A program made the translations under genes and the position numbers. A stretch of 64,000 bases of DNA from the NCBI GenBank assembly GCA_035259385.1, contig DATFWL010000130.1, forward strand, positions 33,319-97,318, given 5' to 3'. Source of the DNA: Vicinamibacterales bacterium (GTDB taxonomy: Bacteria; Acidobacteriota; Vicinamibacteria; Vicinamibacterales; CAVVIG01). Of the stretch, positions 55,427 to 64,000 are shown piece after piece (within the stretch, counting starts at the first letter, position 1; each line of letters starts with the position of its first letter). The notes under the pieces are model-generated. The model was given only the letters and a program-made list of their open reading frames with translations, searched no databases and was not told where the DNA came from.

Positions 55427-55798
55427 TCAGTTCATTGTCGCGACGAGCGGCTGCGCCGACGCGTCGTGAAACGATCCGAAGCCAACCGGATCGAACTCGG
55501 CCAGTTGCGGCGCTTCGACCCAGGTGCAGACCGGAATCTCGGCGGTCTCCGGATCGAGCGCGAGCATCGACAGGAGTTGGAAGCTCCGGAGGTCGTCGAT
55601 CGCCAGGCAGACAATCACCAGATCCGGTGTCGTCTTCTTGATGCACGAGTAGGCACGCTCCGTCGACTCGACGAACACCACGTCGTAGTCGCCGGCGTCG
55701 AGAAGCGTATCGAGCACCGCCGGCTGCAGGTCGGTCGCGACGACCGCGACGGTTCTCGGCGTGGTGACCTTCGAGGCGCGGCCTGCATCGTTCTTCAT
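55427..55798 (-). CDS. receiver (CheY-like) fold protein with a degenerate acidic pocket (pseudo-receiver)
   Basis: GGGAG SD before ATG 55796-55798. The pattern VAVVATDLQ…GDYDVVFVES…AYSCIKKTTPDLVIVCLAIDDLRSFQLLSML…IPVCTWV mirrors REC beta/alpha periodicity, but the N-terminal DD pair is TD. Confidence 0.6.
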   Translation of the reverse strand: MKNDAGRASKVTTPRTVAVVATDLQPAVLDTLLDAGDYDVVFVESTERAYSCIKKTTPDLVIVCLAIDDLRSFQLLSMLALDPETAEIPVCTWVEAPQLAEFDPVGFGSFHDASAQPLVATMN

Positions 55799-55822
55799 GA
55801 TCAACTCCCGCCGGCGAGCACT

Positions 55823-55838
55823 GGCAAAGACAATGCCG
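55823..55838 (-). promoter_or_regulatory. sigma-54 type promoter (minus strand cGGCAT-tgtct-TTGCc)
   Basis: GG-N10-GC spacing is exact and the -12 element is TTGC. The -12 GC is 26 nt upstream of the receiver-like ATG, implying a leader of about 14 nt that contains the SD. Confidence 0.55.
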
Positions 55839-56036
55839 CTACGTTTTGCAGCGTTTTGCGCGGCCGCGGGCGTTGTGGCATCCAGGCGCCCGTACACATT
55901 GCACATGGATGCGCAACCCGGCGGTTGATCGACAGTCCCCCGACGTCGCCGCGACCTACCGCTGTGCGCCCGCAGTGCCGCTAACGCGCTCATTCCACGT
56001 GGTCTGCCGCCAGCGGACACGCACCGCTCCGGTCAG

Positions 56037-60923: not shown

Positions 60924-63900
60924 CGTCGTCCGGAGCGCGTTCGCCGCGACCGGCGGCGTGCTGCCGGTGTCGGGGCTTGGCGTGCTTCGGATCGACGCAG
61001 CCGACCAGATCGATCTCGTGTACTCGGACCGGTTGGGGACAAGTGCCCATCGGTTTCCCGCTGCCGGTGTTCCTGACGCGTTCATATCGGGCGGGTCGCT
61101 GCGGAGTCTGACCGCCGGCGAGGTCGAAACCGCTCCATCAGGTGTGATGCCGTCGCGCCTGCTGTACGTCGGCATGCCGATCAGTCTGCGGCGGTTGAGT
61201 GAGGCACAGCAGATCATCACGCTCCCGGTGCCGCAGCATGGTGCCGAGCGCGTGCAGCTGATCCTCTCGTTGCGCGGTTCGGTGGTGAACGACAGCTCGC
61301 GGGCGTCTGCCATCGCGGCGATCGCGTTACAGGTCGGCGCCGCGATCGACGCACCGCAGTCGGACGTCGACGAGCGAGGCGTGTTGCGCCGGCTCGACTC
61401 CGTCGACAGCGGTCTGCCGGCGCTGTTCGACGTGAGCGACGCCCGCGCGATCCTCGATCGGCTGCCCACCGTGATGCGCGGCGCGCTGCGGCATGACCTG
61501 CTCTCGCTGGGACTACTCAGCGACGACCTGCACACGATCGAGGTCCTGATGCAGACGCCGCACCGGTCTTCTCACGCCTGGGAAGGCCCGCTGCCGTTCC
61601 CGCCGGAGCTGACGTCGACCCTCCTGTACCGGTTCGTCGACGACGTCGCCGGACATCCGGCCGAAAGCGAGCGTCGGATCGCCGAGGCGGGTGGACGGAC
61701 GTCGCTTCGTGCCGCGATCCGCCGCGGCACCGGCATCATCGGCATGCTGAACGTCACGTCGTTCGATCCAGTGCCGTACACCGCTGCGGACCTCGCGGTC
61801 GCGCGGAAAATCGCCGACTCCGTCGCGCTGGCTCTGTCACATCAGCGACTCGCCGCCGAAGTCCGCCGCGTCGCGGCGCGCCAGGAGCGCGACGCGAGCC
61901 TCGACCTTCTCGACGGCCTGATGAACGCGATCACCGGCGTCCTCGACGTCCGCGACGCGTTCGACCAGATCTTCGAGATCAGCCAGCCCGCGCTCGCCTA
62001 CGACGCCATGTCGATCGCGGTGCCCACGGCCGACGGCACGCGGGTCACGCTCTACGCGACGACCGGGGCGCTGCGAGGCGCGCCGACGCCGGTGGAATAC
62101 CCGCTGGGCGATCCAAGCGTGGTGGAGCGCAACTGGGAGTTCCTGCTCGTTGACGATTGTCTGGCCGACTCACGGTACGCGTGGCTGCCGTCGGTGAAGG
62201 CCGGGATGCGGTCGTTGCTGATGATTCCGGTCCGCCTCGACCAGGAGCTTCGCGCCTGGGTGAATTTCTGGTCGGTCTCACCCGGCCGGTTCACGAACGA
62301 CGATGTGCCGATTGCCAGGCGGATTGCGGCGCACATCACCCTCGCGCTGTCGCACCAGCGCCTCGCCGAGCAGACGCAGCGTGCCGAGGAGCTGCGCGCG
62401 CGCACGACGAGCGTCGAACTGCTCGACGAGCTGCTGGCGGCGCTCACCGACGCCGGCGATATTCCTGACGTCTTCGGGCGGATCTCCGACATCGCGCGCA
62501 AGGTGCTGCGTCACGACGCCGCGGTGCTGATGGTGCGGCTGGCCGACGGGCTGCATGCGCGGGTCTACGCGAGCGCCGGATTTCCTGGAAAGCTGCCCGA
62601 CACCACCGAGGTGCCCGACGAGCTCCTGGCCGATCCCGACTGGGAGTACCACGTCTACGACGACCTGTCGACGCGCGGTCCGCGGTACGAACGCGCCAAG
62701 GCGTTCGGGCTGCACTCGATGCTGCGCGTCCCGATCCGGCTGGACGGAACGTTCGCGGGCGCGCTGGTGTTCTTCTCGAGCCAGCTGGCCGGATTCAGGC
62801 AGACCGACGTGCTGGTGGCGCGCCGCATGGCCGATCGACTCGCGCTGACGCTGGTGCGCGATCGAGAAGTCCAGGCGTCGCGGCGCGCCGACGAGGCGTC
62901 GGCCCGCGCCGCCAAGCTCGAAGCGCGCGTCAACGCGCTCACCGAGGAGCTCGATGCCCGCACCGGGTATCGGCGTGTGGTCGGCGACTCGCGCAGCTGG
63001 CGGACCGTGCTGACGCAGGCGACGCAGGTGGCGGCGACCGACACGACGGTGCTGTTGTTGGGTGAGTCGGGGACGGGGAAGGAAGTCGTCGCGCGCTTCC
63101 TGCATCGGGCGTCGTCGCGCGCGAATGGTCCCTTCATCGCGCTCAACTGTGCCGCGCTGCCGGAGCAGCTGCTGGAGGCGGAGCTGTTTGGCTACGAGCG
63201 CGGCGCCTACACCGGCGCGACGCAGAGCAAGCCGGGGCAGCTCGAACAGGCGGCGGGCGGCACGCTGTTCCTCGACGAGGTCGGCGAGATGAGCCTGCCG
63301 GCGCAGGCGAAGTTCCTGCGCGTCCTGCAGGAGCGGGAGTTTCAGCGGCTCGGCGGCACGCGCGTGCTGCGGACCGACGCGCGTATCGTCGCCGCCACCA
63401 ACCGCGATCTGCCGAAGGCGATCACCCACGGGCAGTTCCGCGAGGATCTCTACTATCGCCTCAATGTGTTCGCGATCGCTCTGCCGCCGCTGCGCGAGCG
63501 GCGCGAGGACATCCTGCCGCTCAGCGAAGCGTTCCTCGCCGACATCGGCCGCGGCATCGGTCGTCCGCCCGGTGGGATCTCGCGCGAGGCGCGCAAACTG
63601 CTCGTCCAGTATCACTGGCCCGGCAACGTCCGCGAGCTGCGCAACATCCTCGAGCGCGCCGCGATCCTCTGTGAGGGTGGGCTGATCACCGTGGAGTACC
63701 TCGCGCTCACTGAGCCTCCGCCCCCGCCGGCTCCGCACCCGCAGGTCGCTGGCGGCGCACTGGCTGCCGCGCCTGCGTCGCTTGCGCCGCCAGCGTCGAA
63801 CGACGAGCTGCAGTCGATTGAGCGGGGGATGATCGAACAGGCGCTGCAGAGCGCGCGGTTCAACAAGTCGAAGGCCGCGAAAGCGCTCGGGTTGACCCGC

Positions 63901-63942
63901 CAGCAGCTCTACGTCCGCATGCGCAAGTACGACCTCGAGTGA
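60898..63942 (+). CDS. sigma-54-dependent transcriptional activator (unassigned N-domain, three GAF modules with coiled-coil linkers, AAA+, Fis-type HTH)
   Basis: Three repeats of a GAF block followed by LALSHQRLA-type linkers. [16 protein letters not shown] (a Tyr variant of GAFTGA). [11 protein letters not shown]-terminal [23 protein letters not shown]. An in-frame TAA at 60844 limits the upstream extent. Confidence 0.9.
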
Positions 63943-64000
63943 AGCCGACAGCCTGGCGACGACCCGGACAGGTTGTACCTTTTTGCGCAACCCGAATCGG

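Follow-up and report, generated by a model that had tools for sequence, protein, structure and literature searches.

The region studied here, positions 55427-64000 of a 64,000-nucleotide (nt) stretch of contig DATFWL010000130.1 from a Vicinamibacterales bacterium (the whole stretch is called the window below), is probably the regulatory part of a sigma-54-dependent cluster that recurs in Vicinamibacterales and other Acidobacteriota, and in which a small protein would act as a folded partner of an enhancer-binding protein (EBP) or as an effector; we hold this reading with moderate confidence. The recurring unit is best read EBP-first, that is, as an EBP with several GAF domains (multi-GAF), an intergenic region of ~200 nt with an enhancer-like site and a promoter, a small six-helix cytoplasmic protein, and cargo that varies or is absent. 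Three such predicted units (A, B and C) stand in a row in this genome, the third being completed past the edge of the window. The initial annotation had described promoters, small open reading frames (ORFs), EBPs, an EBP remnant and a divergent receiver/MFS pair, all of which we found at or near the positions it gave, and its view of the units as paralogous sigma-54 modules is supported.

Gene order, promoters and enhancer-like sites

Gene contexts were compared across metagenome contigs with homologues and 39 loci from species-representative genomes, all mapped by tblastn. Most of these 39 loci are from Vicinamibacterales or other Acidobacteriota, with a few from Methylomirabilota, Binatia and Acidithiobacillales; the related loci as a whole (~45) are mostly from Vicinamibacterales. 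They usually begin with one to three multi-GAF EBPs in tandem, which the small gene and then the cargo follow. A multi-GAF EBP was found within 2.5 kb upstream or 1.5 kb downstream of 37 of the 47 small genes, in four orientations, and the co-occurrence of small ORF and GAF-EBP, which had been named at the outset as a point to examine, is thus conserved.

Promoters A and B, as claimed initially, keep the GG-N10-GC spacing (at 56037 and 58532) with CTTG directly after it. Together with the minus-strand element CGGCATTGTCTTTGCC, they satisfy the sigma-54 spacing test, with GG and GC exactly 10 nt apart in a TGGCAC-N5-TTGC context. A start codon follows each of these three sigma-54-type sites at 25-31 nt, and the stretch between contains a Shine-Dalgarno-like run; for the minus-strand element, the distance to the receiver-like ATG is 25 nt and the run is GGGAG. 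A strict consensus search alone was not significant in the window (3 matches against 3.2 expected), so the promoter assignment is supported by the comparison with relatives and not by that count. High-scoring GG-N10-GC sites precede roughly 33 of the 46 non-redundant small genes (our own count), at a consistent distance to the start codon, and in these loci the expectation for a 16-mer of equal quality is 0.039 per 270 nt. A similar site, CGGCGCGCGAATTGCT, is carried by the small gene of locus L004, which is orthologous to small A. The divergent sigma-54-like promoter proposed for the receiver/MFS pair is likewise present as a candidate, judged from its sequence.

Alignment of the upstream regions revealed a conserved TTGTCGATTTCnGCGCA, often as the full palindrome GATCGACAAnTTGTCGAT. 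The distance from this enhancer-like site to the -24 element downstream of it is 103-118 nt in 14 loci, namely 13 related loci and the window, where it occurs twice, as site B (58426) and site C (63973). Such a position is the expected place for EBP binding, and the EBPs would bind there. The EBPs have a sigma-54 contact domain and a helix-turn-helix (HTH), and the predicted promoter and enhancer-like site keep their positions across the loci. Between the divergent promoters, the 55910-55935 element combines TGTCGAT and GCGCA, both found in the conserved site, with a longer spacer, 72-102 nt from each -24 element.

Two further observations concern these sites. In L012 (846-2116), an enhancer-like site and a sigma-54-like promoter stand directly before a 398-amino-acid (aa) outer-membrane-protein-like gene with no small ORF, so the regulon would include promoters that lack a small gene. 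In the window, CGGATCCCCGCCTTGCC (60861-60877) lies 21 nt before the ATG of EBP-C and closely resembles promoter A. Its GG-GC gap is 11 nt, not 10, and it may be a promoter relic at a deletion junction, or inactive.

The small proteins and their family

Small A (79 aa) and small B (87 aa) are both present as first described, and share 46% identity. They had been considered not to belong to any described family. This did not survive the searches, as small B scores 56.2 bits against NF038399 (Os1348 family NHLP clan protein, cut-off 40) and matches PF14407 (Frankia_peptide), and a crystal structure exists for Os1348 (6LK7). Small C, encoded just past the window in L048 (see below), also passes NF038399 with 47.1 bits. 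PF14407 appears in the protein database's precomputed annotation for almost all small B homologues. A match to a well-characterised family, which the initial annotation had considered as evidence against its proposal, is therefore found by half: the family is described and curated, but it is poorly characterised.

Small B has 265 homologues among the 5.8 billion proteins searched, the best-scoring 120 of which are mostly 75 aa long with 70-80% identity, while an exhaustive profile search returned 852 clusters at 50% identity, nearly all of 70-140 aa. The small ORFs are under purifying selection, with dN/dS of 0.09-0.3 for the closest pairs of small genes, and the concern that they might lack conservation in related genomes does not apply. 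Chance ORFs were ruled out by conservation, dN/dS and the curated-family matches. Among the small genes, that of small A groups with those of L004 and L023; an EBP follows in L004, and none was detected in L023.

When a profile of the window's small-protein family was compared with PDB sequences, the top match was 6lk7, which is Os1348 (E=0.004, 20 bits). The AlphaFold2 (AF2) model of small B has six helices (pLDDT 71), and its top two Foldseek matches are the 6lk7 chains (probability 0.95 and 0.89). The next matches are borosin-type RiPP (ribosomally synthesised and post-translationally modified peptide) precursor and methyltransferase domains, as expected from the LigA-like fold in which ECOD classes the PF14407 family (PMC12353581). 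The structural evidence agrees, weakly, with membership of the Os1348 family.

Os1348 from Pseudomonas sp. Os17 is an 85-aa, six-helix homodimer (PDB 6LK7) under GacA/Rsm control, and GNAT, peptidase-like and SagB-like genes follow it (PMC7726476). The proteins described here are similar in being small and all-helical (75-87 aa), with six predicted helices, and Os1348 is their best profile and fold match; in both cases RND efflux genes are near. In contrast to Os1348, they are associated with sigma-54 promoters and multi-GAF EBPs, without the GNAT, peptidase-like and SagB-like genes, and the sequence similarity is remote (20 bits against the PDB, with small A below the family cut-off).

This family membership brings up a RiPP-like or antibiotic-related system, in which the small proteins would be precursors, modified by an ATP-grasp enzyme that utilises phosphoenolpyruvate (PEP), exported by OEP/RND proteins, and switched on by the GAF-EBPs, perhaps through quorum-like sensing of the product. 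We consider such a system unlikely here, but it has real points in its favour. The small proteins fall in the NHLP clan and in PF14407, a family that a 2009 study reportedly proposed as ATP-grasp-associated ribosomal peptides. They share the N-terminal helical motif xxGRLxTDxEFR with PF14407 and the NHLP/Nif11-type RiPP leaders, and their commonest neighbours are an ATP-grasp-type enzyme and efflux pumps. Moreover, loss of Os1348 lowers antibiotic activity, and its authors propose that it is post-translationally modified (PMC7726476). Other points speak against precursors. The whole small protein is conserved and under purifying selection, and members of the close group, mostly 75 aa long, for the most part end right at the conserved RLQKASLK, with no variable core or tail. 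The NHLP leader models are not passed (TIGR03793, 13.4 bits against 50.9; TIGR04509, 23.6 against 34), and no Gly-Gly cleavage motif was seen by eye in the aligned sequences. Among the Pfam families of the annotated neighbours there is no peptidase-domain (C39-ABC) exporter, YcaO, SagB or radical-SAM, most of the 47 loci having been screened by tblastn for EBP, PPDK, OEP and RND only. In these three respects (core, cleavage motif in the alignment and dedicated exporter among the annotated neighbours) the proteins differ from the PF14407 and NHLP/Nif11 leaders. In addition, several clades have the small gene alone beside the EBP, and the OEP-linked small proteins are polyphyletic. Because of the purifying selection and the absence of a variable core, a role as classical RiPP precursors is unlikely, and the annotation as putative RiPP precursors is probably misleading for these members.

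Outputs of the units and the proposed mechanism

The initial annotation saw no recognisable cargo genes in the region. This is true of promoters A and B inside the window, but the general impression is an effect of the window edge, because the window ends, 58 nt past the stop codon of EBP-C, before promoter C, small C and an OEP gene. These were read from L048, a metagenome contig found by its exact match to a 24-mer at the window's end. It agrees with the final 1068 nt of the window at 99.9% identity and runs ~530 nt further. L048 carries a sigma-54-like promoter, TGGCCCCGGCGTTGCC, 116 nt downstream of enhancer-like site C, then a 76-aa small ORF (small C) and, 10 nt after it, an ORF whose product has a signal peptide and the kind of N-terminus usual among TolC-like OEP proteins. 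Unit C would therefore consist of EBP-C, promoter, small C and efflux genes. An exact-sequence search for EBP-C returned no entry, and a metagenome scan with its sensor region returned no relatives.

Relatives of small B indicate what the second unit usually carries. All of its orthologues are followed by an enzyme of 800-890 aa that shares the PPDK_N ATP-grasp, Rph_4th and PEP-utilizers swivel domains with PEP synthase, rifampicin phosphotransferase and PigC-type proteins but falls under all curated cut-offs (best 319 bits against 945). Beyond the enzyme, the loci often continue with another small paralogue and an efflux operon of the OEP-MFP-RND type (L002, L006, L010). The small gene of more distantly related groups (L033, L034, L040) stands directly before OEP/RND genes, and other cargo comprises an OMP beta-barrel protein, DUF4136 and a haem-binding (Haem_bd) protein. 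L004 repeats the order of the window, with an A-like small gene, an EBP, a B-like small gene and then the PEP-utilising enzyme. The window has lost the last of these to all appearances: no PPDK-like gene was found elsewhere in it, either among the large ORFs scanned or by tblastn, and since a pseudogene stands after small B instead, the absence of the enzyme looks like a secondary loss. In unit B, promoter B would thus drive small B, with a truncated EBP pseudogene in place of the usual PEP-utilising ATP-grasp enzyme. Unit A has the order promoter, small A and, 45 nt later, EBP-A, and it would be positively autoregulated, promoter A driving small A and then EBP-A.

A layout of this kind led to the proposal of a self-contained, autoregulatory cassette, with no outputs other than the small proteins and EBPs. 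Promoters A and B have nothing else behind them in the window, EBP-A follows small A, and one clade (L013, L014, L016, L017, L019 and L022) has a monocistronic small gene that runs convergently to its EBP, so that a self-contained module, with a lone small gene behind its promoter, does exist in nature. As an account of this region, however, the cassette is quite improbable, as the third unit would drive an OEP gene just past the window, all small B orthologues precede the PEP-utilising enzyme, whose absence here accompanies a pseudogene, and the divergent promoter has cargo too, the MFS transporter. We regard it as very unlikely that the small protein instead serves the cargo (the PEP-utilising enzyme or the efflux pump), as its chaperone or accessory subunit, and is no partner of the regulator. 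In favour of this are the strict co-occurrence of B-clade small proteins with the PEP-utilising enzyme in relatives and the occurrence of LigA-like folds in enzymes, where they form small subunits or recognition domains (PMC12353581). Against it, the link to the EBP persists while the cargo varies widely or is absent, and small A and small B of the window are without such cargo yet keep intact ORFs, promoters and, for B, an enhancer-like site.

In the mechanism that we favour, with the small protein as a folded partner or effector, ligands would bind the GAF arrays and release the AAA+ domain. The EBP would oligomerise at the enhancer-like site, where its AAA+ domain would remodel the sigma-54 holoenzyme and open the promoter complex, and the small protein and the envelope or efflux genes would then be made. 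The small protein could be a folded protein that works with the EBP, in a feedback following PspA/PspF logic, or could itself be the effector; this is the weakest step. In the Psp system, PspA feeds back on the EBP PspF. The likeness is one of layout only, an EBP gene adjoining a sigma-54 operon that starts with the gene of a helical protein, whereas fold and family are unrelated and PspF has no sensor domains. We favour a folded protein over a precursor because there is no variable core or visible cleavage motif, and no maturation or peptidase-export gene among the annotated neighbours, because the link to the EBP persists while the cargo changes, and because some loci hold only the pair of small gene and EBP.

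Several points weigh against this reading. Ten of the 47 small genes have no EBP nearby. Small A, at 34.8 bits (E=1.3e-8), stays under the NF038399 cut-off of 40 and is a divergent relative, and the PF14407 gathering score of 48 is missed by both small B (34.5 bits, E=2.5e-8) and small A (17.3 bits). The fold match of small B to 6lk7 is weak (Foldseek E=0.09-0.14, TM 0.39-0.47). Promoter A and the minus-strand promoter each have 2 mismatches to TGGCAC-N5-TTGC; the promoters and enhancer-like sites are predictions from sequence and conservation, and the minus-strand promoter, which lacks comparative support, from its sequence alone. L048 comes from another assembly, and we infer its continuity with this genome from the 1068 nt that are shared at 99.9% identity. 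That the small protein acts as a regulator or effector is a hypothesis. Os1348, the sole member studied, has a link with antibiotic activity, and its authors see in it a possible modified precursor (PMC7726476); the family names likewise point toward a precursor role.

Activators, neighbouring genes and wider meaning

Pfam bears out the initial description of EBP-A as having one GAF domain and of EBP-C as intact with three. EBP-A has GAF_2, Sigma54_activat (PF00158, E=4e-69), an AAA lid and a Fis-type HTH_8, while EBP-C has three GAFs, PF00158 (E=7e-70), an AAA lid and HTH_8. The Walker A motif GESGTGK is present in both. The sigma-54 contact loop reads GAFTGA in EBP-A and GAYTGA in EBP-C; the latter is unique among 34 EBPs with a recognisable motif, the 33 related ones all having GAFTGA, and the activity of EBP-C may be altered or reduced through it. 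Against the NifA equivalog TIGR01817, EBP-A and EBP-C reach 375.2 and 380.5 bits, with a cut-off of 528.85. Both are generic GAF-type EBPs, below every curated equivalog cut-off; NifA, NorR, FhlA and RtcR were considered as identities and rejected, all scores being under the curated cut-offs. They resemble NifA/FhlA/NorR-type EBPs in their GAF sensors, AAA+ domain with GAFTGA loop and Fis-type HTH, and in the enhancer (here predicted) ~100 nt upstream of a -24/-12 promoter. They differ in having 2-4 tandem GAF-fold domains, compared with one or two, and in the GAYTGA of EBP-C.

The three large proteins had been said to share an unassigned N-terminal domain. The homology stands, for EBP-A only through multiple alignment or a relative: the N-domains of the remnant and EBP-C share 34% identity (E=3e-10), whereas those of EBP-A and EBP-C give no BLASTP alignment, and the EBP-A domain joins a full-length multiple alignment at 23% and is also linked via a relative. 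The term unassigned no longer fits, as the predicted structure argues that the domain is a divergent GAF fold. Pfam has no match for the N-domain of the window, comparison with PDB sequences returned noise only, and homologue searches gave one match each, from which no deep alignment could be built. Among homologous N-domains, 2-3 of 10 match GAF_2 or GAF_3 at E=0.004-0.02, and hhalign against the cluster's own GAFs gives an end-to-end register at E=0.0024 and probability 12%, which is suggestive, not significant. The AF2 input, which contained no recognised GAF domain, consisted of the window sequences and a single fragment of 92% identity (P0121). The resulting model is of moderate confidence (pLDDT 66, pTM 0.65), and nearly all of its top 50 Foldseek matches are GAF domains (best E=1.7e-4, probability 1.0; TM up to 0.58). 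With this fold, EBP-C would have four GAF-fold domains and EBP-A two.

The unit B remnant, described earlier as decayed and GAF-only, is indeed frameshifted and has neither AAA+ nor HTH. It aligns to EBP-C residues 1-590 with 40% identity and stops in the middle of the third GAF, 44 nt before the start of EBP-C. A frame change between 59209 and 59224 is common to L005, an independent metagenome assembly of the same organism (99.4% identical), and a 1-nt deletion at ~59438, absent from L005, is consistent with ongoing decay or with an assembly error. The remnant is a pseudogene.

The coordinates of all features are collected in Table 1. Because the G+C content of the window is high (~68-70%), it contains many spurious ORFs, and the real genes were picked via codon-position G+C and homology.

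Table 1. Predicted features of the region and its immediate surroundings (window coordinates)
Feature	Position	Strand	Remarks
MFS transporter gene	54139..55356	-	Pfam MFS_1, E=2.7e-39; second gene of the divergent operon
Receiver-like (pseudo-receiver) gene, 123 aa	55427..55798	-	ATG at 55798; weak matches only
Sigma-54-type -24/-12 element CGGCATTGTCTTTGCC of the receiver-like/MFS pair	55838-55823	-	GG-N10-GC spacing
Enhancer-like element between the divergent promoters, minus-strand reading CTGTCGATCAACCGCCGGGTTGCGCA	55910..55935		Putative
Sigma-54-type promoter A CGGCGCGCCGCTTGCC	56037..56052	+	GG-N10-GC
Small protein A, 79 aa, divergent Os1348/PF14407-family relative	56079..56318	+	NF038399, 34.8 bits
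EBP-A: N-terminal GAF-like domain, one GAF, sigma-54 AAA+, HTH_8	56363..58390	+	Pfam; start codon placed by alignment to relatives
Enhancer-like site B TTGTCGGTTTGTGCGCA, like an upstream activating sequence (UAS)	58426..58442	+	106 nt upstream of promoter B
Sigma-54-type promoter B TGGCGCCCCGTTTGCC	58532..58547	+	Position and sequence conserved in all orthologous loci
Small protein B, 87 aa, Os1348-family NHLP-clan	58578..58841	+	NF038399, 56.2 bits
Pseudo-EBP-B: N-terminal GAF and ~2.5 GAFs, frameshifted, truncated	59013..60923	+	Alignment to EBP-C residues 1-590
EBP-C: N-terminal GAF-fold domain, three GAFs, AAA+, HTH_8	60898..63942	+	Pfam; N-domain from predicted structure
Enhancer-like site C TTGTACCTTTTTGCGCA	63973..63989	+	Promoter C, small gene C and OEP gene beyond the window

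Of the divergent pair, the MFS protein has the L-lactate MFS transporter as its best NCBIfam match (167 bits against a cut-off of 320). The receiver-like protein reaches 18.2 bits with Response_reg (cut-off 30.2), 18.2 bits with VpsR and E=1e-4 with PhoB; it gave no BLASTP alignment to CheY, and tblastn found no homologue in the 47 related loci. Its acceptor position would be Cys by manual alignment, and it appears to be either very divergent or no receiver at all. An MFS gene fragment with 41% identity to the MFS of the window lies between the second and third tandem EBPs of L009 (6128-6361, minus strand). It echoes the divergent MFS gene of the window, which suggests that the arrangement is older than this genome.

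Around the region, Rfam reported no RNA family within 53.5-64 kb, and PADLOC gave no defence-system signal, with only generic RtcR/PspF-type AAA+ matches for the EBPs. Elsewhere in the window (22641-26311), the gene for a HAMP/HATPase histidine kinase precedes a 454-aa ORF with an AAA+ region that resembles a sigma-54 activator domain (tblastn match 25340-26260, 43% to EBP-C). This layout suggests a two-component pair, the activator being judged by its AAA+ region alone, and sigma-54 would therefore be used elsewhere in the same genome. A very large DUF2339 membrane protein of 1250 aa is encoded at 26448-30200.

Part of what we describe is already known: EBPs of this kind are ordinary, small B and small C are members of a curated, poorly characterised family, and small A is a divergent relative of it. 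Our literature search found no description of this small-protein family in association with sigma-54 promoters, multi-GAF EBPs and an enhancer-like site common to them; the gene neighbours reported in the 2009 paper that defined PF14407 were outside that search. The comparison defines a repeated regulatory unit in which sensor-activator, enhancer-like site, promoter and first gene come together, and it places a family of small proteins that is poorly understood in a specific regulatory context. It also carries a caution, as the absence of cargo turned out to be an artefact of where the window ends.

Acidobacteriota are abundant in soil and hard to grow, and they have many sigma-54 activators with mostly unknown targets. 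The cargo of the units is mainly efflux and envelope genes, in keeping with the idea that sigma-54 controls the exterior of the cell. It is tempting to speculate, and we put this forward tentatively as a possibility that is still less probable than not, that the Os1348/PF14407 small proteins found here are dedicated partners of multi-GAF sigma-54 activators and not precursors, either as a new class of EBP co-regulators or as stand-alone effectors, being the first product of each activated promoter and then acting back on the activator or relaying the signal. These hypotheses are directly testable, as the promoter, the enhancer-like site and the pair of small protein and EBP can be moved into a tractable host. 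If the small proteins are dedicated EBP partners, this would give a first functional handle on a family of ~850 sequence clusters.

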